Part shown: in pieces, positions 1 to 25,404 of the stretch
Position numbering within the stretch: position 1 is the first letter of the stretch
Layout: each line of letters opens with the position of its first letter
IMG/VR virus record: IMGVR_UViG_3300037458_000153
Span: 1-25,404 of that record
DNA: 25,404 nucleotides
DNA from: a virus
Lineage: Duplodnaviria; Caudoviricetes
Strand: one strand, 5' to 3'
Made by a program: the position numbers and the translations under genes
Notes under the pieces: model-generated
The model's database searches: none
What the model saw: only the letters and a program-made list of their open reading frames with translations
Told to the model about the DNA's origin: nothing

Positions 1-15
1 TTGTACCACCGTCAG

Positions 16-131
16 TATGTAGTACGTTAAATAAAAAAGCCGCCAAGAAGTGGGAAAACTTGGCGGCTAACGATTGGTAAGAGAGTTTAAGTGAATTGCA
101 CGTCACTTGCAATTATATAGTCAATCTGATT
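16..131. repeat. Terminal direct repeat, copy 1 (116 bp); circular assembly overlap
   Basis: 16-131 is identical to 25289-25404, implying a unit length of about 25,273 bp. Confidence 0.95.
33..68 (-). terminator. Rho-independent terminator
   Basis: AGCCGCCAAG/CTTGGCGGCT stem with a U-tract on the minus strand, just after the stop at 87. Confidence 0.85.
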
Positions 132-272
132 GATAAAATTGATTCTATTGACTCGTCTCCTGTAGAGCATCAGCTTTCTTTCCTCCAGGGATTTGATCTC
201 CCTGTCTATTCTGTCCACTTCCTCCTGTGCATTCTTTCTCGTGTTCAGTAGATGTAATTGCAATTCTCGCAT
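87..272 (-). CDS. Small coiled-coil hypothetical protein
   Basis: GGAGG SD before ATG 272 (MRELQLHLL...); heptad-like AQEEVDRIDREIKSLEERKL; followed by a terminator. Confidence 0.65.
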   Translation of the reverse strand: MRELQLHLLNTRKNAQEEVDRIDREIKSLEERKLMLYRRRVNRINFINQIDYIIASDVQFT

Positions 273-609
273 TAAGCCTCCCATACCATTTGTCATTAAG
301 AAAGTGTTTTGTAATAAATGCATTGCAGTCGTCCTTTTCTATGATCCAGTAGTTATCACCATCTTTTTCGTACATCTGGTAAGCACCATGATCCTTGTAT
401 GCTTGCCAAGCGTATCTGAGATCAACTGACTTGAATAATCCTATCCATCGAACGCACCCTACAAGGACATAACGTCGAGTCTTGTCAAGGAAGAGTGACT
501 CATTAAACGCAATATATCCGTCGTCTAAAGGATCATATTGCAAATGACATTTCTCGAATCGTAGTCCTTCAGTGGTGATACAATGGGCGGCAAAGTCTAA
601 AAAGTTCAT
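145..609 (-). CDS. Hypothetical protein
   Basis: 154-aa ORF with GAGGA SD; ATGA-coupled to the upstream peptide; C-terminus overlaps the next gene. Confidence 0.7.
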   Translation of the reverse strand: MNFLDFAAHCITTEGLRFEKCHLQYDPLDDGYIAFNESLFLDKTRRYVLVGCVRWIGLFKSVDLRYAWQAYKDHGAYQMYEKDGDNYWIIEKDDCNAFITKHFLNDKWYGRLNARIAITSTEHEKECTGGSGQNRQGDQIPGGKKADALQETSQ

Positions 610-683
610 TCTTCCTCATCTGGGATTATCGCTAGGGTAAAGATCAGTAAAGCCATTGTCATGTAATATAATTCGACAGCCAT
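606..683 (-). CDS. 25-aa hydrophobic peptide, not in the ORF track
   Basis: GAGGAA SD, MAVELYYMTMALLIFTLAIIPDEEE*; fills the gap between neighbours; its TGA overlaps the next ATG. Confidence 0.6.
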   Translation of the reverse strand: MAVELYYMTMALLIFTLAIIPDEEE

Positions 684-685
684 TA

Positions 686-1222
686 TTATTCCTCGTCTAT
701 TCTCAGAAGATGATTTGATTCCATGTGCCAGCCCTTATCTGGCGTCCATAGTTGGGTAGCAATTTGAGCAGCCATGGAGAAATTTACATAGAATGCTCTG
801 CCTGTAGCTAAGTCTGGATCATCAATGGGAAAGTACTTTTCGCAATGGTATTTTCTCTTTTGTTGCTTATGGTATTGGACAAGAATTCGTTTCTCAAACA
901 ATGCCAGATAATCATAGTTGCCCTGAAGATACCAAATTGAATTATCGTTGCGATAGATTCCACTTTTCACCCATTCATTAAAGCCGCCACCTTCTCTTCG
1001 CTTTCGTTCTGCAATCTCAATGCTCAGCCTGTGTGTCTTGCTACAGGGCTCATCTAACTTGACTTCAATATGATTGCAGCTTTCACCAATATTGTACTGA
1101 TTCTTCCTGCTACCATAGAACTGGATGTAAATCCCAAAATCCCTGAGTTGCATCATGCAAAAGTCTTGAAATTCTTGTCCTTTCTGAAAATCTTTGTCTT
1201 CCTGTGTTTCTGTCCTAGCCAT
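686..1222 (-). CDS. Putative PD-(D/E)xK nuclease-fold phage protein
   Basis: G-x-E-F helix, IEVKLD, LSIE and SGI motifs, which I recall from restriction-endonuclease-like phage proteins. Confidence 0.55.
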   Translation of the reverse strand: MARTETQEDKDFQKGQEFQDFCMMQLRDFGIYIQFYGSRKNQYNIGESCNHIEVKLDEPCSKTHRLSIEIAERKRREGGGFNEWVKSGIYRNDNSIWYLQGNYDYLALFEKRILVQYHKQQKRKYHCEKYFPIDDPDLATGRAFYVNFSMAAQIATQLWTPDKGWHMESNHLLRIDEE

Positions 1223-1277
1223 TACGACTCCAAAAGTTGTAATGGGCGTCCTTACCCGAATAAATCCTTTCTATTTG

Positions 1278-1283
1278 TATCTA
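1278..1283 (-). promoter_or_regulatory. TAGATA late-type promoter element
   Basis: TAGATA-caaaT|A upstream of the 1222-to-87 operon. Confidence 0.55.
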
Positions 1284-1323
1284 TCCAGGTAACTAAGATT
1301 TTTAGAGAAAAAATAATTTCCTA

Positions 1324-1353
1324 TTGCAAAAATAAAGATGACAAGACTATATT
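1324..1353 (+). promoter_or_regulatory. Sigma70-like promoter
   Basis: TTGCAA-N18-TATATT. Confidence 0.45.
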
Positions 1354-1764
1354 AAGGTAGCATTTTGAAAAAAGGAGTGATCTGGGCCTAATGCCTGATG
1401 AAGAGAGTGTGATTGATAGCAAGTGAAAAATAGCGATTGTCTTCACATGAAAATGGTAAGTTAAAAACAGTTCCGCAAGCTACAAGACACACAACACCAA
1501 GCCCTATACAGCTTGGTACTTAAGAGTAGGGCAACTAAGGGGAAAAAATAGTTCGCAACTATAGCCCGAACAAATCTTATGTCACAATAAAAAATTCACC
1601 TGCTCTGTCTTACCCTGACAACAGGTGCCGCTAGTACAAAGACACGTGAATTAAGATTTGGCTACTCAACATCAGTCCCTCATGATCATCCCACTGGACG
1701 CCTTAAAGCTTAAGATCTTAAATCTTTCTAAGAGGTACTAGTGGGAAAAGGGTGCGAATATGCC

Positions 1765-1795
1765 TTGACATAATTGATGTAAGTTACTATAGATA
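1765..1795 (+). promoter_or_regulatory. Sigma70-like promoter overlapping a TAGATA element
   Basis: TTGACA-N17-TATAGA; TAGATA at 1790-1795. Confidence 0.55.
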
Positions 1796-1799
1796 TATT

Positions 1800-1864
1800 A
1801 CCCTTAGAAATGCTTTAGGCCCGCCCCCTGGAATTGCGAATCTTCCAGGGGGCTTCTTTTTTTT
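1800..1864 (+). ncRNA. Candidate ~65-nt small RNA
   Basis: Promoter directly upstream, then the GCCCCCTGGAA/TTCCAGGGGGC terminator with U-tract; no convincing ORF. Confidence 0.45.
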
Positions 1865-1938
1865 ATGCCATATAGAATAATCAAAAAATAAGTGATTATT
1901 ACAAATACCTACCTTGAAAGATCCAAGGAGGTATCGGA

Positions 1939-2157
1939 ATGAATAGATGGCTTGAAAGAATTGACTGGATGCTAGAGCAGCATCCCAAAGAATCGCAAAG
2001 AAAGTACCTAGCAAGCGTCCAGAATCAAATTGAACGCTATCCCGCACTTTATCCCACCTTGCCCCAAGAATTGATTTTGGCCCGTCTGTGGCGTCATTAT
2101 AAAAGACTTGAGCGGGAGTCAGTGCTAGGCACCGCTAGCGAGTGCTACGGTAGATGA
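1939..2157 (+). CDS. Hypothetical protein
   Basis: Strong AAGGAGG SD; 72-aa helical-looking sequence. Confidence 0.7.
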   Translation: MNRWLERIDWMLEQHPKESQRKYLASVQNQIERYPALYPTLPQELILARLWRHYKRLERESVLGTASECYGR

Positions 2158-2182
2158 TTTTGCATCAGAAAGTTTTGGCAAC

Positions 2183-2209
2183 AAAAAAGGCCCAGCCTCC
2201 CTGCCGAGC
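2183..2209 (-). terminator. Rho-independent terminator
   Basis: GGCTCGGC/GCTGGGCC stem plus U6 after the stop at 2240. Confidence 0.7.
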
Positions 2210-2239
2210 CAAAACTCTTCTTCTGTGTAAGGTAGTCTA

Positions 2240-2479
2240 TCAGTCTCGTTTTTTATCCCAGCCCAATAGGTGCCTAGCTGTAGGGTGATAGGTGGGATAG
2301 ATGTCAGTGCAGCCACATCTCGGGCAACATGGCGTCTTGCTAGTGAGCCGCCAGATTGTGTAGATGAGTCCTGGGAAACAAGCCATGCACCATAGGACTA
2401 GTTCAATCAGGATGTGTCCTGGCGTCTTCGTAGCTGGGTACTCTACACATAAGCATTTGCCGCATACCATTCGTTCCAT
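2240..2479 (-). CDS. Small membrane protein with split zinc-ribbon (CxxC-hydrophobic segment-CPxCG)
   Basis: GGAGG SD before ATG 2479; CGKC...LVLWCMACFPGLIYTIW...CPRCG, a LITAF-like architecture. Confidence 0.7.
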   Translation of the reverse strand: MERMVCGKCLCVEYPATKTPGHILIELVLWCMACFPGLIYTIWRLTSKTPCCPRCGCTDIYPTYHPTARHLLGWDKKRD

Positions 2480-2513
2480 AAAAGCCTCCACAGTTAGATA
2501 GCTACAAGAAATG

Positions 2514-2614
2514 AAAAAGCCCCACCAGAAAGGAGCAACTCTAAATGGTGGGGCTTATCGGGCGTTCCTGCCCTATCTTATGTCATCCCTGCCACTAGGG
2601 CTCATCCTTGTGAC
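2514..2614 (-). ncRNA. Candidate CsrA/RsmA-binding small RNA
   Basis: Sigma70 promoter, CAAGGAUG, CAGGGAUG, GGGC-AGGAAC-GCCC, then an 11-bp terminator stem plus U5. Confidence 0.55.
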
Positions 2615-2620
2615 GCTTGT

Positions 2621-2648
2621 ATTGTAGCAATATGGATAGCACTGTCAA
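2621..2648 (-). promoter_or_regulatory. Sigma70 promoter
   Basis: TTGACA-N16-TACAAT with an extended -10 TG. Confidence 0.75.
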
Positions 2649-2654
2649 TAGATA
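2649..2654 (+). promoter_or_regulatory. TAGATA late-type promoter, leaderless
   Basis: TAGATA-tgggT-ATG(2660); no SD. Confidence 0.65.
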
Positions 2655-2659
2655 TGGGT

Positions 2660-3460
2660 ATGGCAATTACAACAATAGATCAGGCGTTAGCGGGAATGAA
2701 GCCTCCCGTAGAATTCTACAAAGCCCTAAGTGGCAATATGGTAGCTGGTAGGCCCTTTAGCTACTTTTACAGCAATGGTATTCCTGGCCCAGCAGCAGCA
2801 CCAAGTCCAGGTATCGGTGGTGCTGCCCTTACATCCTATGCTGGCCAACTACCATATACCAATCCATCAAGCGGATATAGTTATCTAGCTCGATTTGTAG
2901 GACAGTGTACGCAAGCTGGGACTTTGGTATTAGCGGATAGATTGTGGCATAACTCGGGCTACACCATTACCAGTAATACAGAACAAACACATACGGGTGC
3001 TGCGGATATTCCTGCCCGAGATGTGAATGGTGCTGCTCTGGGGCATGGTGTATTTGCTGCTGTAGAAGTCAGTAGTGCAGTTGGTGCTGGTACGCCAACA
3101 CTGACACTGAAATATAATAATCAAGACAATACAGAAAAGACTGCTACCAATGTTATCGCTACTGTGGCTAGTAGTGTTGCTGGGACATTTTATCCCATCG
3201 GCCTAGCTGCTGGTGACACTGGCATACGTAGAGCCGTGTCTCTTACATTATCTGCAACTTGGACTTCTGGGACAATTCATACTGTCTTGTATCGTCCGAT
3301 TGCAAGATTACAACTAGGGGCTAATGCTCCTTGGGCTTTAGATTTATTGACATCGGGAATGCCAAGAGTATTTGACAACGCTGTGCCGTTCTTATACTTC
3401 ATTCCCAATACAACAACATCGTCCACGATTCACGGGCAAGTAATTTATACACACGGGTAA
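2660..3460 (+). CDS. Putative virion structural protein, paralog 1
   Basis: Ala/Gly/Thr-rich, beta-type composition; start moved to 2660 because the paralog also begins MAITT. Confidence 0.7.
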   Translation: MAITTIDQALAGMKPPVEFYKALSGNMVAGRPFSYFYSNGIPGPAAAPSPGIGGAALTSYAGQLPYTNPSSGYSYLARFVGQCTQAGTLVLADRLWHNSGYTITSNTEQTHTGAADIPARDVNGAALGHGVFAAVEVSSAVGAGTPTLTLKYNNQDNTEKTATNVIATVASSVAGTFYPIGLAAGDTGIRRAVSLTLSATWTSGTIHTVLYRPIARLQLGANAPWALDLLTSGMPRVFDNAVPFLYFIPNTTTSSTIHGQVIYTHG

Positions 3461-3463
3461 TTT

Positions 3464-4282
3464 ATGGCAATAACAACATTAGCTGGGGCTGTCAGTGGAA
3501 TAAAGCGTGTGAATGAAATGCAACGTTCTGCACAAACATATACCACCACTATACCACTAAGCCATTTCTTCGTTAGCGGATATCCTACACCTGCCGCAGC
3601 ACCAACTCCTGGAATTGGCGGTACAACGTTAACTAGTTACGCTGGCCAAATCAATTTTGATAATCCCAGTAGTGGCAACACTTATTTATACAATTTTACT
3701 GCTAGTAATCAATCTTTGGGTACAGTGTGGCTATGTGATCGGCTGTGGCACAATAGCGGCATTACTATCACCTCCAACACAGAACAGACATTTACTGGCT
3801 CTGTAGATATTCCTGCCAGAGACATGAACGGTGCTGCTCTGGGACATGGCGTCTTTGCTGCTGTAGAAGTCAGTAGCACAGTTGGATCAGGTACACCAAC
3901 ATTAACTTTGAAATATAAAAATCAAGATAATGCGGAAAAGACTGCCACAAACATTATGGCAACTGTAGCAAACGCAGCAGCAGGCAGTTTTTATGTAATT
4001 GGCTTAGCTGCTGGTGACACTGGCATACGTAGAGCCGTGTCTCTTACATTATCTGCAACTTGGACAAGTGGGACAATTCATGTAGTGTTATATCGTCCTA
4101 TTGCTAAGCTTGCTATGTCCAGCACATTTGGATCGGGTAGGAATGATTCACAAAACAATTTGTGCTGTGTGTCGGTGGGATTTCCTAGGCTATATGACAA
4201 TAGCGTACCATTTATCGTGCATTCTAGTGGAACGTCTAACACAACTGGGCAGAGTGCCACAGTGCAATTTACACAGGGATAA
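3464..4282 (+). CDS. Putative virion structural protein, paralog 2
   Basis: Clear paralog (DRLWHNSG, DIPARD, AAGDTGIRRAVSLTLSATWTSGTIH). Confidence 0.7.
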   Translation: MAITTLAGAVSGIKRVNEMQRSAQTYTTTIPLSHFFVSGYPTPAAAPTPGIGGTTLTSYAGQINFDNPSSGNTYLYNFTASNQSLGTVWLCDRLWHNSGITITSNTEQTFTGSVDIPARDMNGAALGHGVFAAVEVSSTVGSGTPTLTLKYKNQDNAEKTATNIMATVANAAAGSFYVIGLAAGDTGIRRAVSLTLSATWTSGTIHVVLYRPIAKLAMSSTFGSGRNDSQNNLCCVSVGFPRLYDNSVPFIVHSSGTSNTTGQSATVQFTQG

Positions 4283-4285
4283 TTA

Positions 4286-6706
4286 ATGCGTGGACAGCAA
4301 ATCAGATCATCCTGGAATACTCCAGCGATATGGATGTTGGTAAATGATCCATTCAGGCAATGGTGGCTTGGATTCCATTACACTGAGGCTGTCACTGGCA
4401 GTATTAAGTTAGGTGGTGTTGCTACAGAATCTTATGTTCCAGCTAGTGGCTCCAGTACTTACAACGAGTCCATGTCTGGTGGCACTAAGGCTGATGGTGA
4501 TACCACAGAGTTGTTCACATACAACGTAGTGATGTCTGGTGGCACCAAGGCCAATGGTGATACCACAGAACTATTACACTATAATGCATCGGTGAGTGGT
4601 GGCACCAAGGCTAATGGTGATACCACAGAACTATTCAACTATAATGCATCGGTGAGTGGTGGCACCAAGGCTAATGGTGATACCACAGAGCTATTGACTT
4701 ATAATGCATCTGTGAGCGGCGGCACTAAGATTAGTGGTGCTGCTGTTGCCTCACTGATTCGCACTGCGGTGGTATCTGGTGGAACTAAGCTTAGTAGCAC
4801 TGCTGTTGCGTCACTGATTCATACTGCGGTAGTATCTGGTGGCACTAAGCTCAGTGGTGCCTGTGTTAATGTGGGCACCTATGCGTTGAATGTTAGCGGT
4901 GGCACTAAGCTCAGTGGTGCCGCCTATGTACTGGGCAGTGTAACATACAACGAAAGCATGACTGGTGGTGCTAAGCTCAGTGGTGATGCTACCATAAAAT
5001 CGATTTACACTTTTCCAGTCAGGGAAACGCCACACACTTGCACTGTTACTAGAGGCACAACTACAGATCCAGTCACTACCACTTGGCTTAAAGACTCCAA
5101 TTTCCACATGGTGAGGGAGGTAACTGGTGCTACTGGTATAAGCTACATGTTGTATTTTGGTAACGTTCCAAGATTGGGCATTACTAGATCATTAAGAATC
5201 AATGTGCGATATGCGGGCAGTGATGGACATATATGTTACTTACAACTCTACAATTACACCACATCGACTTACGATAATCTTATTCAATTACCCGAAACTG
5301 CTGGCTTTGTAGATCGCAATTTTGCAATTACGGATGACTACTTTAGCCCCTTTGACTACTATAGCGGTGCCAATAATGCAGTATTCAAAGTAGATCATCC
5401 AAGCCCTGGTAACATCAATCATTGGGTGGGTATTGATGAACTAATCATCACGTCCAACACTGGTACTGAACTTAGTGGCTCAGCAAATGTTTCTGTAGTA
5501 TATGCTTGTGACATGAGCAATGGTGCCAAGCTTAATGGTGCTTGCGATGAAAGTCTAAATGAATCCACGAACACGTATAATGAAACAATGTCTGGTGGTG
5601 TCAGACTCAGTGGACTGACTATCCACACTCATTACGTGAATGCCGATATGTCTGGCGGCACGAAGCTTAGCGGGACTAGCACACTAGTAACACAGTATAG
5701 TCAGACAATGTATGGTGGCTCTAAAGTCAGTGGTAATGCAGCCTCCACATCCCGCTATACATCAACTGCACTAGGTGGTGCTAAGCTCAGTGGATATGTG
5801 GATATATCTGAGTCTGGCGTTATCAACGAGACTATGAGCGGTGGGCTTAAACTTGATGGTACGGCAAGACTAGTTCGCTTGCTATATTCTGATGTTTCGG
5901 GTGGTATCAAGAGTGCTGGGGAAGTGGAAAGATTGTATACACTCAATCCTATGGCCTCTGGTGGCATCCTAGCTGTAGGCAACAGTAACAAAATCAATAT
6001 AGGACGCCCAGATGAGGATACCAACACTGGGCTATACTGGACACAAGATCCACCGTTTTGGAGCAAGCTAAATGAATCTGTGGCTGGCACATTTGTTCAT
6101 TGTGCTTTACCGCTTGGGTACAGCAACACTCTAGAAGTGGGCATGTCTGGCAATACAAGGATATCACCGAATATATCAGTCAATTTCATGTATAGGATGA
6201 GCGTACAGACTAGGATGACAGTAGTAGCCTCTGTGGTATGTGGCAGTACTGTAATAGCTTCCTGGACAACTAGTGGTGGTGGACTGGTAACTTATAGCAG
6301 AAAACTTACAGAAGCACAGATTGCTAACATCACTGACTTCAGTGATGTGCGAGTACGATTCGTTTGCACCAGCACTAATATTTCCCCAGTGAGTGCGTAC
6401 ATTTATTGGGCCAGATTGTATGTTGAAAATGCTGGGATGGCGGATGTCGAATTTACATACAATCCCGTTGTCTCGGGCGGGGCTGAGCTAGCTGGTGTGC
6501 CTTACGTTCTTGGCATCGGGGCTCATGTCATGCGGGCTACCACCACCACAGGTATACAGTTTGATAGTTTGACGGACATTGCAGCAAGGCTATCTGGCAG
6601 GAATGATATTGGCATTGGTATATCTGCGGACACAGGCGTAGAGGCCCAGTGGTACACACAGACTGAGCTTGATCTTAAGGAGACGGCTGCTTTACACGTC
6701 CTATAG
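4286..6706 (+). CDS. Repeat-rich putative tail fibre/adhesin
   Basis: 806 aa; ~20-aa SGGxK(L/A)xG repeats interrupted by two non-repetitive beta-rich domains. Confidence 0.7.
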   Translation: MRGQQIRSSWNTPAIWMLVNDPFRQWWLGFHYTEAVTGSIKLGGVATESYVPASGSSTYNESMSGGTKADGDTTELFTYNVVMSGGTKANGDTTELLHYNASVSGGTKANGDTTELFNYNASVSGGTKANGDTTELLTYNASVSGGTKISGAAVASLIRTAVVSGGTKLSSTAVASLIHTAVVSGGTKLSGACVNVGTYALNVSGGTKLSGAAYVLGSVTYNESMTGGAKLSGDATIKSIYTFPVRETPHTCTVTRGTTTDPVTTTWLKDSNFHMVREVTGATGISYMLYFGNVPRLGITRSLRINVRYAGSDGHICYLQLYNYTTSTYDNLIQLPETAGFVDRNFAITDDYFSPFDYYSGANNAVFKVDHPSPGNINHWVGIDELIITSNTGTELSGSANVSVVYACDMSNGAKLNGACDESLNESTNTYNETMSGGVRLSGLTIHTHYVNADMSGGTKLSGTSTLVTQYSQTMYGGSKVSGNAASTSRYTSTALGGAKLSGYVDISESGVINETMSGGLKLDGTARLVRLLYSDVSGGIKSAGEVERLYTLNPMASGGILAVGNSNKINIGRPDEDTNTGLYWTQDPPFWSKLNESVAGTFVHCALPLGYSNTLEVGMSGNTRISPNISVNFMYRMSVQTRMTVVASVVCGSTVIASWTTSGGGLVTYSRKLTEAQIANITDFSDVRVRFVCTSTNISPVSAYIYWARLYVENAGMADVEFTYNPVVSGGAELAGVPYVLGIGAHVMRATTTTGIQFDSLTDIAARLSGRNDIGIGISADTGVEAQWYTQTELDLKETAALHVL
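4472..4990 (+). repeat. Coding ~60-bp tandem repeat
   Basis: GGTGGCAC(C/T)AAG recurs about every 60 bp; near-identical units at 4530-4710. Confidence 0.9.
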
Positions 6707-6989
6707 CAGTTAGCTCTTGGTATAGCTGGGACTGTCCATCTACGGCTGTAACGGCAATGATGTATTCCCGATCTTCCACCATGTATTGCGTGATTTGCCA
6801 TGGTACGATTGCATGGTAATTGCCATTTGTATCATCAGCCACAAAGGATAGGGGACTGCCCATGCTTGTGGAGTCAGATAATATTTGGGCTTCCACATCA
6901 GCATTGCTTATGGGCAGTCCTGTTACGTTGTCGGTGAGATCGGATAGGCGGATGACGTTATCGGATGCGATATAAATTACGTGACTCAT
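6675..6989 (-). CDS. Small Ig-like virion protein (BppU N-terminal-like)
   Basis: LSDLTDNVTGLPISNADV...GNYHAIVP...EYIIAVTA beta-sandwich pattern; leaderless start. Confidence 0.55.
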   Translation of the reverse strand: MSHVIYIASDNVIRLSDLTDNVTGLPISNADVEAQILSDSTSMGSPLSFVADDTNGNYHAIVPWQITQYMVEDREYIIAVTAVDGQSQLYQELTAIGRVKQPSP

Positions 6990-6994
6990 ACGGG

Positions 6995-7000
6995 TATTTA
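6995..7000 (-). promoter_or_regulatory. TAAATA late-type promoter, leaderless
   Basis: TAAATA-cccgT-ATG(6989). Confidence 0.7.
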
Positions 7001-7004
7001 GTGC

Positions 7005-7052
7005 TTGACTCCCGCTTTTGCTATGGTATGGTGATAAGGGGTACTATCACCA
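7005..7052 (+). promoter_or_regulatory. Sigma70-like promoter with overlapping palindrome
   Basis: TTGACT-N16-TATGGT; TGGTGATA-N8-TATCACCA at 7029-7052. Confidence 0.55.
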
Positions 7053-7067
7053 ATAGGAGCTAAAGCT

Positions 7068-7343
7068 ATGGCCAAACGTCCAGCACCGCAAAAGAAGTGT
7101 GTCAAGAAGGGCTGTGGGGAGATGATGCACGCCCGTAAGAATGTCTGTCCTAAGTGTCAGACATTACAGCCAGTGAAAGAAAAGCCAGTCTCAGAGCCAA
7201 AGCCAGAGCCAGAAAATGAATTGATCAAACAGCAAACGCCCGAGTTTGTGATTATTGAAGCTATCCGCTTTGTCAGGGTATGTGGCGGTATCGGTAGGGC
7301 AATCACATTGCTGGAAGAATTGTACAAACTTCCTAGGGCATAG
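7068..7343 (+). CDS. Small basic zinc-finger protein, possibly DNA-binding
   Basis: AGGAG SD; CxxxxC...CPKC, Lys/Pro-rich linker, helix-GG-helix C-terminus; own promoter and terminator. Confidence 0.7.
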   Translation: MAKRPAPQKKCVKKGCGEMMHARKNVCPKCQTLQPVKEKPVSEPKPEPENELIKQQTPEFVIIEAIRFVRVCGGIGRAITLLEELYKLPRA

Positions 7344-7349
7344 GATACC

Positions 7350-7396
7350 AAAGCCCAGCCCCATACAACAAGTATGAAGCTGGGCTTTTTTGTTTA
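7350..7396 (+). terminator. Rho-independent terminator between convergent genes
   Basis: AAAGCCCAGC/GCTGGGCTTT stem plus U-tract. Confidence 0.8.
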
Positions 7397-8962: not shown

Positions 8963-8990
8963 GCGGGTAATCTTAATGCTGTCGGGCTAC

Positions 8991-8996
8991 TAAATA
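8991..8996 (+). promoter_or_regulatory. TAAATA late-type promoter, leaderless
   Basis: TAAATA-cccgT-ATG(9002). Confidence 0.7.
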
Positions 8997-9001
8997 CCCG
9001 T

Positions 9002-16512: not shown

Positions 16513-16513
16513 A

Positions 16514-17376: not shown

Positions 17377-17852
17377 ACACCCCTCACCGCTTCATCTAAA
17401 AATTGCACAATGTTATATTCCGCTTCGTCCCCAGCTAACTTAGCCTTTTGCTCAAACGCCTTACGCATGTATTGTTTCCCCTCTACCCTGGGGCTGCCAG
17501 TTTGATTCTTATTCTGGCTCTTCTTGGGATATCTGCTGTGGCCATATTCCTGTAAGCTTCCATGAAAGAAAGATCTTTTGAATGGTACAGCTTTACCACC
17601 GTGGAATATATTGATCTGGATATGTTGTCGGGATCGTTTGCCAGCCCTAATCCTAATGTTCTTTTTGAGTTCGCCACTCTCTTTGGGAACTAGTTGCATG
17701 GCCAGTTGTTGCATCGGACGTAAAGCCCTACGCATCGTACTACGCATTATCTTCTTGGCTACTCTAGGCTCTAGGGCCTGTAGCCTTTCATCTATCTCTT
17801 TCTGGCCAGTAACTATGATCTTGACTGATTTGGCTATTGTTGCTCCAGACAC
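17373..17852 (-). CDS. HK97 gp10-like tail completion protein (start uncertain)
   Basis: VPKESGELKKNI, LQEYGH, YMRKAFE motifs. Confidence 0.85.
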   Translation of the reverse strand: MSGATIAKSVKIIVTGQKEIDERLQALEPRVAKKIMRSTMRRALRPMQQLAMQLVPKESGELKKNIRIRAGKRSRQHIQINIFHGGKAVPFKRSFFHGSLQEYGHSRYPKKSQNKNQTGSPRVEGKQYMRKAFEQKAKLAGDEAEYNIVQFLDEAVRGV

Positions 17853-18151
17853 TTACACAGTGTTTCTCTATCTTGGGCGTCTTTGTTCAGTACAGAAACT
17901 ATATTGAACACTCTGCCTTTCCACGTAATCCGATGCTTGGTGGTGAGTTCGCTCGCATATCTGAGCGTAATGAGATGACTGGCTGTCTCTCTGATAGCTC
18001 TAGCTTTCATAGACTCAGTGTCATCTAGCGGTAGGACATCTGCCCATCTGGAATATAATGCCGTCCAAGTTTGTTCCACTTGGCCAATGCTATCCCTTGT
18101 CTCGGTAGCTTGTTCAATCGTTACCCTTGTCCACAAATCACCTGATCTCAT
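17834..18151 (-). CDS. Head closure protein (SPP1 gp16-like)
   Basis: MRSGDL.TRVTI, RWADV, ITLRY, RITWKGRVFNI. Confidence 0.9.
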   Translation of the reverse strand: MRSGDLWTRVTIEQATETRDSIGQVEQTWTALYSRWADVLPLDDTESMKARAIRETASHLITLRYASELTTKHRITWKGRVFNIVSVLNKDAQDRETLCKCLEQQ

Positions 18152-18711
18152 ATACACTCCACTACAGTTAGTTGATCAATTAGACGTTGCACGCCAAAGG
18201 GAACTTCCGCAATGATTGTCCCGCTAATTGTTGCTTCCCTATTTTCATACCATTGGGATACCAATAGTTTGACGGCATGAGTTAAGGTAGCGGGAGGCGT
18301 AGTATATCCACAGGTAAAGCGGATTGTTATAGCATCATATCTTGGATAGACAGATGGCCAGTAATCTACTGGGCAGATAAATCCCGGCAGATTGCTAGCG
18401 GTAACTACCCTGTAATCAGTGTCTTCCACCATCGTAATTTCTACGTTGGACGTATCGTAATACTTGATGCTGTCAACTGATTGAAGCGGAGACTTCGGTA
18501 AAAACAAGCGATTGCTGGAGAAACAGGCTATTACACTTTGGTAAGTGTAGGCTCTGAAGCATTGAGAAGTCTCCGCTTCGATAAGTTGAATGGCAGCTTC
18601 CCTGAGTCCTTCTAGGTAGGAATCATCTTCCTCAATGTCAATGCGGCAATGATCCTTAAGGGCTGCTAGTGATACGATCTCGTCAGCGGATTTTGATATG
18701 GTAGTAAGCAT
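18148..18711 (-). CDS. Head-tail connector (HK97 gp6-like)
   Basis: VSLAALKDHCRID, AVKLLVSQWYENRE. Confidence 0.92.
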   Translation of the reverse strand: MLTTISKSADEIVSLAALKDHCRIDIEEDDSYLEGLREAAIQLIEAETSQCFRAYTYQSVIACFSSNRLFLPKSPLQSVDSIKYYDTSNVEITMVEDTDYRVVTASNLPGFICPVDYWPSVYPRYDAITIRFTCGYTTPPATLTHAVKLLVSQWYENREATISGTIIAEVPFGVQRLIDQLTVVECI

Positions 18712-20367: not shown

Positions 20368-20394
20368 AACTCAAAGCAATGGGACTTTCCAAAG

Positions 20395-20985
20395 TTATTT
20401 ATACTTCTCTAATCTTTTTTCCGTCTCGATTTTTAGTCGTTCCTGCTCAAGCCAAGTTGCATAATTGTCTTCCATTTCCTTGGATCGTACAAATGCAGTA
20501 GATGCTTGGTAGGCTGGCTTACTCACTGGCCCAACGTCTCTTAACTGTTTGACTGATCGTACCCAACAGATGTGCTTGTCACCCTCATTGGTGAATTCCG
20601 TCTTCCCTGGCTGAAACGCAAAGCTGCTTCCTTTACACAATCCTTTACTAATCTTAGTCCTGACTTTCATATGATCGGGATCGTCTTGGGCGAAAGGTAC
20701 TGAATAACGTAAGCCTTTGCTGTCGGTGCGGAGTTGCAATGTGTTACTTTCTACATCACCCAGAATGTAATCTTCACTGTGATTGAATCTGGCTTCTACG
20801 TTGGATCGTTCGGCTAGGACTTGATTGAATGCTTGGGAATCTATTCGTTCGTATAAGTTGCCGCCTAAGTGATACTCTGTACCTGGATCGGCTGAGTTGT
20901 AAAATACACTGGCATACCCACTGATGTAATGTTGTCCATTACGTTCCTCTATCTGAGTGGTATCCGTCGTCATCCTTATTTCCAT
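20395..20985 (-). CDS. HK97-family prohead protease
   Basis: ISGYASVF, FNH, LRTDSKGL, GSSFAF, DVGPVSKPAY. Confidence 0.95.
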   Translation of the reverse strand: MEIRMTTDTTQIEERNGQHYISGYASVFYNSADPGTEYHLGGNLYERIDSQAFNQVLAERSNVEARFNHSEDYILGDVESNTLQLRTDSKGLRYSVPFAQDDPDHMKVRTKISKGLCKGSSFAFQPGKTEFTNEGDKHICWVRSVKQLRDVGPVSKPAYQASTAFVRSKEMEDNYATWLEQERLKIETEKRLEKYK

Positions 20986-22517
20986 AATTCCTCCACGATT
21001 TGTTCAGTGGTGTATCTAGCCAGTACAGCTTGGTGCTGCTCTGGTAATGTCGCAGATAATTCGTGTTGCATATTGTCTAACATTCGCTCAGCAATTTCTT
21101 TGCCTTTTTTGAATGCCGACATGTTCTCAATGACTATATCCCGATGCTTTGTTAAGTCTGTCTGCCCTTCACTGACTGCCTTGCTTATCCGCTTAAGCAA
21201 TCGGGATACAGTCTGTTCCGTTAGTTTGCGGGCTACCTCTTCCGCTTCCTCCTCCACTGGCTCCTCTGCTGGAGCCTGGGGTAGCATCTGCGGCATCGGC
21301 TGCGGCTCTGGCTCCTCACCCTCTATCACAATATTGCTGGGGTGCTGCCAAGTTTCATCCTCACTCTTGTCCGTAGTCATGTTGAGTTTCTGTCGCATCT
21401 CTTGCCAACTGATCATACCGTTTTGGAATTGATATCCTAGAAGTTCAATCTCTGTCTTAATGTCAGTAGAGATGAGCTTCTTACGTTCAAACTCGATATA
21501 GTGGGATTCCTCTTCCTTTTCCTGCTCCGTCAGTAACTTAGTTTGACATTCCTCTTCCCAATTTATCAAATGATGTTCAATACTGTCAGCAAGGAAATTC
21601 TTGTCATCCTGTTCCAAGCTTCCATAGCTGGTATTCTGTGCTGATCCTATCTTGGAATGGCTGCTACCAAATAGATTGGCTGAGCTTATAAGATCGAATT
21701 CCCTGGACTGATTGAATTGTCCTTCATCATTATTGATGGCCACAGTAGTTGTCTTGGTGCCAGTGGGAACAAATGCTGGCTTGAATGTATTTTCTACGTT
21801 GGCGTGGGATCGATACCAAGCATTGCGGAATTCCGTTACCTTCTCCAGTCCTTTGATCGTTGGCGGTAATTCCACAATTAGTTTTGGCTGGGCATTGTTG
21901 GCGAAGTAGTAAGCCGCATGACGTTGGAGGCTCAAGCCCAAGCCCAAAGCATCACGTCCCAGTTGCAATGTGTTATAGCCCTCGACACCATCGCCAATAT
22001 TCTGGATGTGTAGACAGTCCTCTGTGGCAAGGGTAAATGGCTTGTCATTTAGATTGGTGCGGATTAGCGGTAAGCCAGTGGAGGTATCAATATAGGTGGC
22101 TGTTGGATCTAGTATCAACAACTCGACTGGCAAGGCATAAGCGTCACGAACGATATATGCCCACGCATTGCCATAGAGTAGGCAATACAATTGCATAGTC
22201 CTGCGAAATACAAATGGTGTGTACAGTGGTGAAGGACTACGCCTCAGTAATTTCTGGGCGGGATGCTGATTGTCCTTTTCCCTGCTGCCATTGTTGCCAT
22301 ACCTCATCACGTTCAGTGGTAATATGGCCACCTTGGTACTGATGAGTTCGCAAGCTCTGCGGACTGCGGGATTGCCTAGGACTGATTGTAGACTCACCCT
22401 AACACCGCTTGAGCTAGGTGGGCCACTGGTGAGCATTTCATACGTTGCGGGATCATTTAGATTAACACTGGGATTATCTAAGATGGATCGTTTGAATATT
22501 TTGTTCCAGATTGACAT
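20976..22517 (-). CDS. HK97-family portal protein
   Basis: AVRRACELIS, LLYGNAWAYIVRD, CLHI; start moved to 22517 (MSIWNKIFKR), removing the TerL overlap. Confidence 0.95.
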   Translation of the reverse strand: MSIWNKIFKRSILDNPSVNLNDPATYEMLTSGPPSSSGVRVSLQSVLGNPAVRRACELISTKVAILPLNVMRYGNNGSREKDNQHPAQKLLRRSPSPLYTPFVFRRTMQLYCLLYGNAWAYIVRDAYALPVELLILDPTATYIDTSTGLPLIRTNLNDKPFTLATEDCLHIQNIGDGVEGYNTLQLGRDALGLGLSLQRHAAYYFANNAQPKLIVELPPTIKGLEKVTEFRNAWYRSHANVENTFKPAFVPTGTKTTTVAINNDEGQFNQSREFDLISSANLFGSSHSKIGSAQNTSYGSLEQDDKNFLADSIEHHLINWEEECQTKLLTEQEKEEESHYIEFERKKLISTDIKTEIELLGYQFQNGMISWQEMRQKLNMTTDKSEDETWQHPSNIVIEGEEPEPQPMPQMLPQAPAEEPVEEEAEEVARKLTEQTVSRLLKRISKAVSEGQTDLTKHRDIVIENMSAFKKGKEIAERMLDNMQHELSATLPEQHQAVLARYTTEQIVEELWK

Positions 22518-22522
22518 AACGG

Positions 22523-22528
22523 TATTTA
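22523..22528 (-). promoter_or_regulatory. TAAATA late-type promoter, leaderless
   Basis: TAAATA-ccgtT-ATG(22517). Confidence 0.7.
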
Positions 22529-22536
22529 GTAGCTGT

Positions 22537-24180
22537 TCACACAAATACCATAGGCCCGTCCCAGGTATCATCCTCATATGCCAGCCACCCGCCCATTGCG
22601 ATGGCACTGGCCACAATCCCATCTATCCGCCCATTGCTCTTGAGCTTGTCCAGCATTATTTGATCCTCATTGTTGCTGCGGCAAGTGGCCACACTGACAC
22701 ACCAATCTAAGATCGGATGCCCAGCATGACGGATAGTATGATCCAGCATCTTGCGTTCTAGATAGGCGGTACTGGGTGACATGCTGGCAAAACTCTGCTT
22801 CACTTCCAGAAATTCACAATCCATTTCTTCTTGGAGTTTCATAATTGTCTCGGTAGCACCATAAGGATCATAGCGGAATTCCAAGATATTGAACTTCTGG
22901 GCGTCTTCTAAGATGGCTGCCCTGATGGCAGTAGGATCAATAATGTCTCCCTCAGTTAGTTTGATGTGGCCTTGCTGCTCCCATACAAGGTACGGCACAT
23001 GATCCGTTTTGCTCTTGATAGTCGCCAGTTGCTTCGGGCTGAAGAATCTGGGCAACAGATATATGTTCGGCTTGCCCTCATCATCCTCTTTCTTTACTGC
23101 CACCACATAACAAGTCAGATCATTACGCCTGGACATATCCAAGCCAATCATAGCGGGATATCCATGTAAGTCCTCTTCAGTAAATAGTCCTCTACAGAAT
23201 CGCCACTTGGTAATATCCAGCCAAGCTTGACAATGCCCTACTGGCATATTGAGTAGGAACGTTTTGAAACGGATGGCATCTAGTGGACTGTTCTTTGCCT
23301 TCTCATATTCTTGGCGGTAGTAGTTCATGGTGACAGTACCAGTGGGTAAATTCTCAGTTACCATTGCTGGCTGAGCTTTGATCCACTGTTCTTCTGTCGT
23401 CCACTCCTCATCTTCCCTGAGTCCATACACCATTCCTAGTGTGTCTAATCGCTCATCCTTGCCATCCATAATATCCAGTGCCAGTTGATACAGCCTGTAG
23501 CCTAGGTGTTCATGTTCATATTGGCAGTGTGAGATACTCCAAAGCTGTGGATTTTCTCTAGTCATACCTGCATTACACAGCCTGTCATAGATCACTTGGG
23601 CATGTGTTCCATTCCATTCCCATGTTTCATCCAGTGCTATCCAGTTGGCATTGAGTCCTGATTTACCTTCTGGTGTGCTGGATAATACACGAAATTTACT
23701 GTGCCGTTTCTCATCCTGTACCAAGGATATGTCTCTGCGAATCTTAAGGAATCGTAGGGACGGGCAATTGTCTATGTAATCACAGGACTGATTGAATAGG
23801 ATTTGAGCTTGTTCGACAGTACTGGCGATACAATAACACTCACTACCTGGATGCTGGAGCAGATGGTATAGCCCGAGTCCACTCAACAAAGAAGTCTTCC
23901 CTGACTTCTTTGGAGTGAACACATACACATGGCGGAAGCGTAAGCTACCATCTGGATTGCGGTAGCCATATGCTCTTAAGATCAGTTGTTTCTGCCATGG
24001 CATTAGTGACAGTGGCTTGCCCGTCCATGGGTGCTTACTCTGTATGCAGAAAGTACTGAGGAAATGGCAAATCTTATAAGGTAATTCGTAATCAATGTAA
24101 TGGCCTAGCTCGTCTGCTATCTTGTCTGCTTTCGTCAGACTGTGTTCCAGTCCTTTGAAATACATCTGGTATTCGTTCAT
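22537..24180 (-). CDS. terL: Terminase large subunit
   Basis: LMPWQ, Walker A PKKSGKT, Walker B IALDE, nuclease GLDMS..DLT, YDPY, RIDGIVA. Confidence 0.96.
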   Translation of the reverse strand: MNEYQMYFKGLEHSLTKADKIADELGHYIDYELPYKICHFLSTFCIQSKHPWTGKPLSLMPWQKQLILRAYGYRNPDGSLRFRHVYVFTPKKSGKTSLLSGLGLYHLLQHPGSECYCIASTVEQAQILFNQSCDYIDNCPSLRFLKIRRDISLVQDEKRHSKFRVLSSTPEGKSGLNANWIALDETWEWNGTHAQVIYDRLCNAGMTRENPQLWSISHCQYEHEHLGYRLYQLALDIMDGKDERLDTLGMVYGLREDEEWTTEEQWIKAQPAMVTENLPTGTVTMNYYRQEYEKAKNSPLDAIRFKTFLLNMPVGHCQAWLDITKWRFCRGLFTEEDLHGYPAMIGLDMSRRNDLTCYVVAVKKEDDEGKPNIYLLPRFFSPKQLATIKSKTDHVPYLVWEQQGHIKLTEGDIIDPTAIRAAILEDAQKFNILEFRYDPYGATETIMKLQEEMDCEFLEVKQSFASMSPSTAYLERKMLDHTIRHAGHPILDWCVSVATCRSNNEDQIMLDKLKSNGRIDGIVASAIAMGGWLAYEDDTWDGPMVFV

Positions 24181-24458
24181 TAGCCCTCTAGATGTGGAAA
24201 CAAATCGTGCAAGTCTGACGTTGGTGCGGCACCTTTATTCTTAGTGCTAGTAAGTCCTAGCAGTGTGGAATACTTACTGATCAGTTGAGTAGCTTTGATC
24301 TTGAGTGATACGCTACACTCGGGCAATAGTTCCTCTGCTTCATCGTACATGCTATATGCATCCGCCAGTCTCATCAGTAGTTCCTTGCTGTTCGGATTCA
24401 ACGCTAACATCGGGGCTATCTGATCGTAGTACGTCTGGGCTTTCTTGCTGAGTTTCAT
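24180..24458 (-). CDS. Probable terminase small subunit
   Basis: Directly upstream of and coupled to terL; helical, with an LGLT motif like P27-family TerS. Confidence 0.7.
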   Translation of the reverse strand: MKLSKKAQTYYDQIAPMLALNPNSKELLMRLADAYSMYDEAEELLPECSVSLKIKATQLISKYSTLLGLTSTKNKGAAPTSDLHDLFPHLEG

Positions 24459-24675
24459 CTGGCTCCTTTTTATTCTTCATCTCGTTGGCTTCGTATTCCC
24501 AATACATCTTAAGCAATGCTCTGCAAAACTCACTGTTGCTGACATGTTGACGTTGAGCACTTAGCTTAAGCTTTTCGTACTCTTCATCACTCGTGACAAA
24601 ACTTACTGAGTGTGTTCTATCTGGCTCTAAATATTTCCCTAACTCTTTGAATGGTGTAGTAATTTTCCTAGACAT
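24352..24675 (-). CDS. Ribbon-helix-helix DNA-binding protein
   Basis: SVSFVTSDEEYEKLKLSAQRQHVSNSEFCRALL; AGGAGG SD; TATATA-aagcT|A element upstream. Confidence 0.7.
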   Translation of the reverse strand: MSRKITTPFKELGKYLEPDRTHSVSFVTSDEEYEKLKLSAQRQHVSNSEFCRALLKMYWEYEANEMKNKKEPDETQQESPDVLRSDSPDVSVESEQQGTTDETGGCI

Positions 24676-24756
24676 GTAAAATCCTCCTAGCTTTATATAG
24701 TAATAACTGAGAGAAAATATCCTGTTATGCAGTTTTTCACCCTGGAGGGCTGTCAA

Positions 24757-24892
24757 AAAATCTGCACAGGCCCGTTGCGGCTTTCATCCTTTTAGGGAAG
24801 CTCAAAAAATGGCCCCCATTCCCCCCAGGATCGTTTGTGTGGCGTCCTAATCGCTCAGTAGCACAATGTGACGCATTATATTCATGTGCGTT
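24757..24892. other. Candidate cos/packaging region
   Basis: Non-coding gap between HNH and the terminase genes, with a GGGGGGAATGGGG tract on the minus strand; usual cos position in HK97-like phages. Confidence 0.45.
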
Positions 24893-25204
24893 CTATTGGC
24901 CTTGTGCAGTCTTTATATTGTGGCAGGAATAACATAATGATTGTAGATTCCTAGGCTCGAACATCTTGTCCATGTCACCACGATGAGGACTGATATGATC
25001 AACACACTGTGCTGCCCTAGTGATGCCCTTAGCTAAGCAGTGTACACATAGTGGATGATTGGCTAGATGTATATCCCTCAATGCCTTCCATGCTCTAGTG
25101 TACCCACGCTGATGGTAGTTGGGCCTATTGGTGAGCTTAGGGCAAGAGCAACGTTTAGGTGAGCGTTGACATACTGGACAGATTCTAGATGGTGCGTATG
25201 GCAT
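24893..25204 (-). CDS. Terminase-associated HNH endonuclease (HK97 gp74-like)
   Basis: RGYTRAW, PLCVHC, VDHISPH, NLQSLCYSCHNIKT. Confidence 0.95.
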   Translation of the reverse strand: MPYAPSRICPVCQRSPKRCSCPKLTNRPNYHQRGYTRAWKALRDIHLANHPLCVHCLAKGITRAAQCVDHISPHRGDMDKMFEPRNLQSLCYSCHNIKTAQGQ

Positions 25205-25211
25205 ACCAATA

Positions 25212-25283
25212 TAAATGCCGCTAGGGATAACGAATCCCTAGCGGCACTTAGTGAAAGATAATAGAAAGGTAAAGAGTTGTACC
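25212..25283 (-). ncRNA. Candidate ~70-nt small RNA or HNH leader
   Basis: TACATA at 25289-25294, pyrimidine-rich stretch, TGCCGCTAGGGAT/ATCCCTAGCGGCA hairpin. Confidence 0.4.
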
Positions 25284-25288
25284 GTCGT

Positions 25289-25404
25289 TATGTAGTACGT
25301 TAAATAAAAAAGCCGCCAAGAAGTGGGAAAACTTGGCGGCTAACGATTGGTAAGAGAGTTTAAGTGAATTGCACGTCACTTGCAATTATATAGTCAATCT
25401 GATT
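25289..25404. repeat. Terminal direct repeat, copy 2
   Basis: Identical to 16-131. Confidence 0.95.

Follow-up and report, generated by a model that had tools for sequence, protein, structure and literature searches.

A circular 25-kb element with a full siphovirus gene set and no recognised replication or lysis genes: a candidate minimal temperate phage of Planctomycetota

Background

Satellites without replication genes have already been described. As far as the account of deCarvalho et al. 2023 (PMC10690885) goes, the Streptomyces satellites MulchRoom (14.8 kb) and MiniFlayer (17.4 kb) encode their own terminase, portal, capsid, adaptor and HNH proteins but lack primase and replication genes; an integrase is present in MulchRoom, and both were co-isolated with helpers of ~130 kb, which they need. 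Genes for a tail tube, a tape measure and chaperones are missing from the annotations of the two sequence records. Phage-inducible chromosomal islands that form capsids (cf-PICIs) are stated in PMC12772148 to encode their own capsid and packaging genes. In the present work we analysed IMG/VR virus record IMGVR_UViG_3300037458_000153, which carries an element with a complete siphovirus head-and-tail gene set and an integrase. The whole record, 25,404 nt, is referred to as the window. An earlier note, made from the letters alone, had taken the element for a helper-dependent satellite that does the reverse of the known ones, making its own virion and borrowing late transcription, replication and lysis; this overlooked MiniFlayer and MulchRoom, in which, by the account in PMC10690885, capsid and packaging genes occur without replication genes. 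We lean, with moderate confidence, towards a different reading, in which the window is a minimal complete temperate phage of Planctomycetota that uses the replisome of its host and not a helper phage.

Results

Closure of the unit

The two ends of the window overlap. Positions 8-131 equal 25281-25404 at 98% identity, and there are a 3-nt indel and 2 mismatches within the first 15 nt. This imperfect overlap, the 'linear' topology class given to the record by IMG/VR and a CheckV completeness estimate of 40% would fit an assembly artefact, in which the circle is a mis-join or the window is a fragment of a larger (~60-kb) phage as the CheckV value suggests. However, independent Logan contigs from other runs span the junction with kilobases on each side. 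The sequence is contained in three wetland-metagenome runs (0.95, 0.93 and 0.88 of sampled words matched); run X10 contains scraps of it only. In run X2, a contig of 5,615 nt and depth 14.9 covers window 1-2705 with 0 differences and runs on into window 25404-22305, bridging the junction with more than 2.7 kb per side (positions 2575-2820 and 3109-5615 of that contig record correspond to window 25158-25404 and 22305-24811, respectively). Since the depth of this contig equals that of its neighbours (14.2-14.9), the joined form is the main form. A contig of run X1 (2,796 nt) overhangs window position 1 by 87 nt, and the overhang aligns, with divergence, to 25199-25273; no contig of run X3 bridges the junction. 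The runs possibly include the sample of origin and possibly come from one campaign, and the bridging contig is of another strain and another assembler.

The imperfection of the overlap falls in a strain-variable stretch. Window 24811-25280, which contains the HNH gene and its upstream sequence, is polymorphic: two or more strongly divergent versions co-occur in the runs, the major one, diverged from the window, at depths of 12-15 in X1 and X2 and the version of the window itself at depths of 2.4-4.4. Because the window carries the minor variant, we take the original contig to have broken here. In one variant, 24 other letters stand in place of 82 nt, and a segment of 153 nt is diverged at unchanged length. 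The flanks are identical between variants, which resembles a recombination or replacement hotspot.

The gene order across the joined ends (72-aa gene, early genes, HNH, TerS, TerL) is that of an integrated relative, the Pirellulaceae island described below, and this match supports the closure. A second relative, IMG/VR record G002, closes exactly at a similar size, and the island is bounded by attachment-site (att) repeats at 21.9 kb. The element is therefore a unit of ~25.27 kb that closes on itself as a circle, close to the ~25.3 kb first proposed. To the extent that contigs can show it, the circle is not a mis-assembly, and we regard an artefact as very improbable.

Gene content

The window encodes an HK97-type packaging, head and siphovirus tail module. 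Pfam and PHROGs match its head, neck, tail and terminase families (Table 1), so that the full morphogenesis set seen by the earlier note is confirmed, and the morphogenesis open reading frames (ORFs) are all full length. The tail assembly chaperones G and T rest on PF06223 (2e-14), phrog_344 (3e-27) and phrog_337 (1e-13). The match of the small terminase is below cut-off in the window, and strong TerS matches stand at the equivalent place in the island and G002. An HNH gene beside the terminase genes is the HK97-like cos-cutting arrangement. For the portal gene we take the ATG at 22517, which immediately follows the late motif described below, as the most likely true start in place of 22622. 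Position and conservation in the relatives suggest a tail-tip role for the 279-, 201- and 221-aa proteins; the 279-aa and 201-aa proteins have homologs in the island and the 279-aa protein also in G002. The 134-aa protein is a candidate DNA-binding regulator or packaging accessory protein. The integrase matches PF00239, PF07508 and phrog_95. For the attP-like site that had been claimed together with it, candidate palindromes are all that was seen.

We found no replication, lysis, sigma, antiterminator or repressor family (CI-type included) among the window ORFs in Pfam (30 ORFs at E<=0.01; 24 ORFs at E<=1), PHROGs, NCBIfam or PADLOC. The window has no tRNAs and no Rfam match at E<=0.1. These absences, which the earlier note had listed, stand in four profile libraries and are common to G002 and the island. 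Its statement that only a few short ORFs are unassigned is contradicted by the count: 13 of the 30 ORFs (3,214 aa, ~38% of the genome) belong to no named family, and the 79-aa membrane ORF is an additional unassigned one. This share could hide an initiator, regulator, holin or lysin. TerL identity to the nearest deposited phages is at most 31%, and in such an unexplored lineage many unassigned genes are to be expected. Scans for sigma-70-type promoters (30 vs 25.7 and 19 vs 24.3) and for terminators (12 vs 8.1 and 15 vs 10.0) were not above shuffles.

Table 1 Features of the window. Positions are those of the 25,404-nt record. Strand is given as + or -, and a point denotes a feature without strand. 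Column Evidence denotes profile matches with E values, or other remarks.
Feature	Position	Strand	Evidence
Left copy of end overlap	1-131	.	Equals 25274-25404; assembly closure point, not biological repeat
154-aa early-region protein, orphan	145-609	-	No family (Pfam, PHROGs, NCBIfam, PADLOC)
178-aa early-region protein	686-1222	-	Conserved GE..ExK..D and LSIEIxE motifs
Divergent non-coding control region, 716 nt	1223-1938	.	TTGACA-17-TATAGA promoter-like site 1765-1799, + strand
72-aa protein	1939-2157	+	No family (Pfam, PHROGs, NCBIfam)
79-aa ORF (83 aa from GTG start): CxxC, hydrophobic segment, CxxC	2240-2479	-	No family (Pfam, NCBIfam, PADLOC)
Two paralogs, 268 and 272 aa	2654-4282	+	Large virus-only family, no named function
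806-aa protein with tandem 20-aa (60-nt) repeats	4286-6706	+	No family (Pfam, PHROGs)
104-aa gene	6675-6989	-	Late motif directly before start codon
Late motif and ATG of 104-aa gene	6987-7002	-	One inverted-repeat arm
91-aa zinc-ribbon protein	7068-7343	+	Adjoins integrase; weak matches only
Large serine recombinase (integrase), 490 aa	7418-8890	-	PF00239 1e-12, PF07508 3e-11, phrog_95 1.5e-56
Late motif and ATG of 487-aa gene	8989-9004	+	Other inverted-repeat arm
Fibre operon: 487 aa, 81 aa, 297 aa (LamG/concanavalin-like)	9002-11571	+	PF13385 1e-13
279-, 201- and 221-aa genes	11721-13830	-	Tail-tip position after tape measure; no family (Pfam, PHROGs, NCBIfam)
Tape measure, 685 aa	13855-15912	-	phrog_9483 7e-35 and 8 further PHROGs, 6 annotated tape measure
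Tail assembly chaperone T	15890-16156	-	Lambda-like G/GT arrangement
Tail assembly chaperone G	16162-16575	-	Lambda-like G/GT arrangement
Tail tube	16514-16927	-	Pfam/PHROGs
Tail terminator	16969-17376	-	Pfam/PHROGs
Neck1	17373-17852	-	Pfam/PHROGs
Head closure	17834-18157	-	Pfam/PHROGs
Head-tail adaptor	18148-18711	-	Pfam/PHROGs
HK97-fold major capsid protein, 417 aa	18795-20048	-	PF05065 3e-58, phrog_10 2e-64
Prohead serine protease S78	20395-20985	-	PF04586 2e-28
Portal	20976-22517	-	PF04860 1e-64
Large terminase TerL	22537-24180	-	PF20441 2e-34, PF03354 1e-12, phrog_9 2e-117
Small-terminase-like, 92 aa	24180-24458	-	PF05119 E 0.0022 (below Pfam cut-off), phrog_83 2.5e-4; by position
134-aa ribbon-helix-helix-like protein, weak NikA/MbpA/CopG-like	24352-24756	-	PF21983 2.4e-4 (below cut-off), NF041418 7e-4
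HNH endonuclease	24893-25204	-	PF01844 3e-7, phrog_144 1e-26; adjoins terminase genes, strain-polymorphic stretch

Relatives and likely host

The closest named TerL relatives come from metagenome-assembled genomes (MAGs) of Planctomycetota. In a TerL scan of species genomes, a Pirellulaceae MAG came first at 43% identity and a Pirellulales MAG followed at 34%. A Pirellulaceae contig of 157,626 nt contains homologs of 18 of the 30 window proteins in the same order, in an island whose GC content is 0.36-0.46 against 0.54-0.61 in the flanks (0.40 vs 0.57); the flanks carry Ser/Thr kinase and DAHP synthase genes. The island is bounded by a 19-nt direct repeat with copies 21,903 nt apart, the left copy being the 3' end of tRNA-Glu(CTC). 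The low GC relative to the flanks and the repeat at the tRNA gene identify it as an integrated, recently acquired, prophage-like element of 21.9 kb. No homolog of the serine recombinase of the window was found in the Pirellulaceae genome, and a 511-aa island ORF beside the tRNA, which has no family, is a candidate integrase. As this relative is a prophage in the tRNA-Glu gene of a Pirellulaceae MAG, the lineage integrates and its hosts are likely Planctomycetota; for the window itself a Planctomycetota host is likely, on the strength of a relative at 43% TerL identity.

The second relative, IMG/VR record G002, is 24,174 nt long; its exact terminal repeat of 123 nt gives a unit of 24,051 nt. 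It matches 10 of the 30 window proteins, including the serine recombinase (34-38% identity), and profile searches recognised no replication or lysis gene in it. Its extra genes encode an MT-A70 methyltransferase, glycosyltransferases, a GNAT protein and an HNH-AP2 endonuclease. The three independent elements of 22-25 kb have the minimal layout in common, which is a family trait. The earlier note had proposed looking for relatives with the same gene absences, and G002 and the island are such relatives. Scans of IMG/VR with the capsid protein, TerL and the 178-aa protein gave few close relatives, and a metagenome scan gave 4 loci; the closest TerL relatives have 46-49% identity (P0002-P0006).

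Some further observations concern these relatives. The TerL frame of the island is open from the TerS stop and has no ATG, GTG or TTG for ~45 codons (L009:9980-10140), so that the gene may have a non-canonical start or the annotated 478-aa product may be N-terminally short. Between TerL and portal, the island alone has a 196-aa ORF without a family (L009:11661-12251; GC locally raised to 0.49). In G002 the MT-A70 methyltransferase gene lies among tail genes (L074:13729-14295), and a cargo block (L116:3208-6615) contains a glycosyltransferase/methyltransferase fusion, GNAT, an HNH_3-AP2 endonuclease and a second GT2. Four Pirellulales MAGs (L016, L058, L064 and L069) have isolated C-terminal TerL fragments at 36-47% identity, on large chromosomal contigs with no other window matches; these are possibly decayed relatives.

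Such truncated TerL remnants would also suit a defective or gene transfer agent (GTA)-like particle producer, that is, a remnant which makes particles, has no replication or lysis of its own and exists mainly as a prophage. The gene set does resemble minimal GTA head-tail clusters and has the same absences. The free, joined form is nevertheless the main form in two runs at the depth of the element body, and G002 is a closed genome. The foreign GC of the island and its intact att repeats in a tRNA gene indicate a mobile and recent element rather than a vertically fixed one. In addition, the morphogenesis ORFs have kept their full length, and strain variants co-exist, which implies an evolving and spreading population. 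We therefore regard a defective or GTA-like producer as quite improbable.

The early region as a swappable slot

The ~3.5 kb across the joined ends comprise the 72-aa gene, the 79-aa membrane ORF, 716 nt of non-coding DNA and the 178- and 154-aa genes. Read over the junction, the order in the window is 72 aa, 178 aa, 154 aa, HNH, ribbon-helix-helix-like ORF, TerS and TerL, and that of the island is 72 aa, a 206-aa ORF, a 159-aa ORF, HNH, TerS and TerL. Besides HNH and TerS, the 72-aa protein is the sole non-structural protein common to window and island (39% identity, E 2e-10); it has no PDB match below E 0.046 and is a candidate regulator. The 206-aa island protein matches PF23343 REP_ORF2-G2P (E 9e-7, 29.6 bits against a cut-off of 27.8) and has an HUH motif (HFHFI) and a YxxK motif (YVTK); a score above the Pfam cut-off together with both motifs makes it a candidate rolling-circle initiator. 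Its gene occupies the exact slot of the 178-aa and 154-aa genes of the window. The early slot of G002 holds a 288-aa protein with a weak winged-helix match. Phage replication and control modules typically show such exchange of unrelated genes at a single position, which suggests that a minimal initiator is encoded in the slot and that the replisome comes from the host.

The 178-aa protein has five homologs at 36-42% identity and 34 matching IMG/VR loci, and its conserved GE..ExK pattern has what we take to be a PD-(D/E)xK nuclease-like look. Gene neighbourhoods were examined in 9 loci: 16 had been picked, and the 7 in which a simple ORF caller called no gene at the match were dropped. In all 9 loci a DNA methyltransferase of phrog_359 (E<=1e-55), which often has a ParB-like N-terminus, is encoded directly upstream of the 178-aa homolog; in 5 of the 9, genes for replication or primosomal proteins, or for helicases or helicase loaders like DnaB, DnaC or DnaD, lie within four genes. 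This suggests that the 178-aa family belongs to phage replication modules, its role in the window being assigned by association. The methyltransferase and the 178-aa homolog, whose genes often overlap, form a conserved two-gene unit in many unrelated phages of GC 0.32-0.65 (L080, L081, L084, L088, L100, L101, L104, L109 and L111). A PDB profile search with the 178-aa protein gave 0 matches at E<=10, its AlphaFold2 (AF2) model failed (pLDDT 37.9), and hhalign gave probabilities below 1% against the 159-aa and Rep proteins of the island.

The 154-aa protein has 3 matches in 1.84 billion representatives, one of which is its own fragment, one homolog in a separate search, and nothing in the Atlas. 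Its AF2 model is weak (mean pLDDT 55), and Foldseek found no PDB entry at E<=0.001 with it (best E 0.04, TM ~0.2). Scattered winged-helix-like rows in that search were not usable at these values and were set aside. We tentatively list the protein as a weak candidate for a DNA-binding or initiator protein.

In the non-coding region, a hairpin with a T-run (~1822-1868) follows the promoter-like site at 1765-1799 and lies ahead of the 72-aa gene. At the other end of the early region, a GC-rich hairpin with a minus-strand T-run at ~30-68 (read by eye) is placed so that it might terminate the 178-aa/154-aa operon.

A conserved motif at late gene starts

A T4-late-like motif, ACTAAATACC-N3-ATG, stands at orthologous gene starts in all three elements. 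In the window, TAAATA-N5-ATG occurs 5 times against 0.33 expected, and 0 of 100 shuffles reach 5. Four of the five copies coincide exactly with gene starts (487-aa gene, 104-aa gene, portal at 22517 and adaptor); the remaining copy, before a 55-codon ORF on the opposite strand between the capsid and protease genes, is probably due to chance. The 279-aa gene has a copy with N6 spacing. Island orthologs with the motif at the same distance are the portal, adaptor, 283-aa and 539-aa genes, and in G002 it precedes the portal, adaptor and tail tube genes. The portal and adaptor starts carry it in all three elements, and the first gene after the tape measure and the first fibre gene carry it in window and island. 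The 12 aligned sites of the three elements comprise 8 ACTAAATA, 1 GCTAAATA, 2 CATAAATA and 1 AATAAATA; CC follows the motif in 8 of the 12, and no -35 element is conserved across them.

The adaptor-gene copy lies, in all three elements, a few bases 3' of a strong hairpin with a U-run after the capsid gene (z -3.7, -4.5 and -4.6; the fold in the window has -25.5 kcal/mol and z -3.7). Since this terminator-like hairpin precedes the motif, transcription would need to restart at the adaptor gene. Motif-linked genes have no Shine-Dalgarno sequence, and neighbouring genes have GGAGG-like ones (read by eye). In the 5.3-Mb host MAG, CTAAATA-N5-ATG has 3 matches, of which the island accounts for 2; the reversed control has 4 matches, and the motif is not a general host signal. 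We predict that it is a -10-only promoter with transcription starting at the A of ATG, which would give leaderless late mRNAs. An alternative is a translational role on a read-through transcript.

These results bear on whether the element is a virion-autonomous satellite, which would make its own particle and integrate by itself, and to which a helper would give replication, T4-late-like promoter reading and lysis. The motif is of the -10-only type and resembles the late promoter elements of T4, TATAAATA, and S-PM2, NATAAATA, as given in PMC2984593; its geometry fits a start at ATG, and it is rare in the host MAG outside the island. A phmmer and blastp search with T4 gp55 against six-frame ORFs of window, island and G002 gave no gp55-like ORF (best E 0.14), in agreement with the earlier note, which recognised no sigma factor, and no candidate reader shared by the elements was found. 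Helicase, primase, polymerase and lysis genes are unrecognised family-wide, and a Rep-like initiator is found in the island alone. There is also the precedent of elements with capsid and packaging genes and no replication genes, as reported in PMC10690885.

Against this, 0 of the 12 sites match T4 TATAAATA and 3 match S-PM2 NATAAATA, compared to 8 with ACTAAATA; what stands of the 'T4-like promoters' proposed at first is a conserved, element-specific motif and not the T4 consensus. No helper was identified. In an IMG/VR scan for CACTAAATACC-N3-ATG, all 80 loci listed of 119 had a single match per contig, and no large phage rich in the motif was among these loci; ~320 matches were estimated, about chance level by a rough estimate, and the test is weak, the pattern having been narrowed to one flanking base. 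An HUH Rep-like gene is present in the island itself, and the 178-aa early protein of the window belongs to a replication-module family. Unassigned ORFs make up about a third of the genome, and the lineage has no characterised relatives. Known satellites economise on virion genes, whereas the window carries a full set at 25 kb. With no helper seen and a Rep-like protein in the island, the proposed dependence on a co-infecting helper is not supported, and we consider a satellite of this kind unlikely. Slightly less probable again is its specific form as a family of integrative 22-25-kb Planctomycetota elements, in which a sigma-like factor of a co-infecting phage would read ACTAAATACC-N3-ATG and give leaderless late mRNAs.

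Fibre-like, integration and other plus-strand genes

The plus-strand 487-, 81- and 297-aa genes are convergent with the minus-strand structural genes; of their products, the 487-aa and 297-aa ones have island homologs. The 806-aa protein is likely a fibre. A 60-nt (20-aa) repeat unit with a GGxK core occurs at window 4460-4990, 5570-5800 and 9890-9990; it is common to the 806-aa, 487-aa and, at the protein level, 297-aa proteins, which suggests modular exchange among fibre genes. The genes of the 268- and 272-aa paralogs share a 300-nt direct repeat at 77%. Their family is an Atlas cluster of 4,927 members, 93% of them viral, with a stored model of pLDDT 0.90 and no named family, and the two are likely virion or host-recognition proteins.

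The integrase gene and the 91-aa ORF form a cassette between two outward-facing late genes. The 91-aa protein is a candidate lysogeny regulator or directionality factor; PADLOC, run on the window proteins, returned a single weak AbiEi-like row, for this ORF. A bidirectional terminator-like hairpin lies 3' of its gene at ~7353-7392. Upstream of the gene, a palindrome at 7027-7053 (8-nt arms, 8-nt spacer) overlaps a TTGACT-16-TG-TATGGT promoter-like site and is a candidate operator or attP core. The cassette is bracketed by a perfect 16-nt inverted repeat (6987-7002 and 8989-9004). This repeat suggested an invertible segment, which we set aside, as elements like this 16-mer are also found at the portal and adaptor genes and in the relatives. 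We read the repeat as two copies of promoter plus ATG; inversion of the cassette would also be allowed.

The 79-aa gene has a near-consensus sigma-70-type TTGACA-16-TG-TACAAT site (2648-2621), a terminator-like hairpin in its leader (2536-2519) and GGAGG-N7-ATG. With the terminator 3' of the ORF (2210-2189), the whole small gene spans ~2180-2660 on the minus strand. No other gene of the window has a host-type promoter of this kind. The product is a candidate membrane protein (moron, exclusion protein, lysogeny-expressed protein or holin).

Discussion

In the reading that we favour, a phage replicated by its host, small and unrecognised early proteins would recruit the host replisome. The ~3.5-kb region between the 72-aa gene and HNH would be a swappable slot for replication and control, holding an initiator or accessory nuclease only. 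The conserved TAAATA, 5 nt, ATG element would start transcription at the A of ATG and yield leaderless late mRNAs, and the promoter-reading factor and the lysis genes would be among the unassigned ORFs or come from the host. HNH, TerS and TerL would then cut and package unit genomes at a cos site.

Several points weigh against this reading. Profile searches recognised no helicase, primase, polymerase, holin or endolysin in window, island or G002, and peptidoglycan hydrolase domains are usually detectable. No lysis cassette was recognised in any of the three elements, the sole candidate being the 79-aa membrane ORF. The window has no iteron-like tandem repeats and no DnaA-box cluster that would mark an origin (10 DnaA boxes against 7.9 expected, none in the non-coding region). 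No replication initiator was recognised in the window itself: the Rep-like gene is in the slot of the island, and the 178-aa family is linked to replication modules elsewhere, so that a replication role of the 178- and 154-aa proteins is assigned by association, with folds that failed or were weak. The two proteins have no similarity to the island Rep or 159-aa protein, and the window does not have the methyltransferase that accompanies the 178-aa family elsewhere. Moreover, besides HNH and TerS, no non-structural protein is common to all three elements that could read the motif, and the rarity of the motif in the host MAG may leave room for a trans-acting factor from another phage.

If the favoured reading is true, the window gives a first look at unusually small, complete temperate tailed phages linked to Planctomycetota; we know of no isolated phage of this phylum and found none in the literature searched. 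It would also represent an extreme stripping of non-structural genes, with ~3.5 kb of early genes and no recognised replisome parts or lysis genes. A motif fused to start codons predicts leaderless late operons from a -10-only promoter and raises the question of what reads it. If the element were instead a satellite, the satellite concept would extend to elements that do not need a helper for any structural component. In both cases, the proteins of the swappable early slot are a good place to look for new replication initiators, regulators and lysis proteins.

Comparison with known systems

The motif resembles T4-type late promoters (gp55/gp33/gp45) as a short, A/T-rich, predicted -10-type element without -35 before structural genes, and in T4 the last A of the element lies 6 nt before the start, as predicted here. 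It differs in its consensus, ACTAAATACC, in a predicted start at the ATG, and in that none of the three elements has a gp55-like ORF.

MulchRoom and MiniFlayer have in common with the window a capsid of their own and no replication genes, the absence in the window being one by profile search. The window differs in having a full tail set, a size of 25 kb and no known helper, and a tblastn search of 30 window proteins against the two genomes gave none at E<=0.01. PICIs, cf-PICIs, P4 and PICI-like elements (PLE) are also small, integrative and phage-related. However, they borrow tails and/or heads, whereas the window encodes head, neck, tail and fibres, and they encode their own replication functions, of which none is recognised here. 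All virion genes are present in the window, and no primase, Rep or helper-sensing regulator of its own was recognised. GTAs of the Rhodobacter capsulatus (RcGTA) type are alike in their compact head-tail-terminase cluster. The main RcGTA cluster is without replication or lysis genes, and GTAs are chromosomally fixed with no self-packaging; in contrast, there are an integrase here, att repeats and foreign GC in a relative, and a free closed genome form. The element is not a PICI, cf-PICI, P4 or PLE-type satellite, and not a GTA.

The HK97-like temperate siphoviruses, with genomes of roughly 40 kb, differ from the window in size (~25 kb), in that no replication module, lysis cassette or CI/Cro-type switch is recognised in it, and in that its late operons start at a -10-only-like motif directly before ATG. 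Common to both are the integrase, the tRNA integration seen in the relative, and a packaging, head and tail module built from the same families in the same order. Although no lysis cassette was recognised in it, the element works in the manner of the HK97-type temperate siphoviruses, and its structural genes place it with them.

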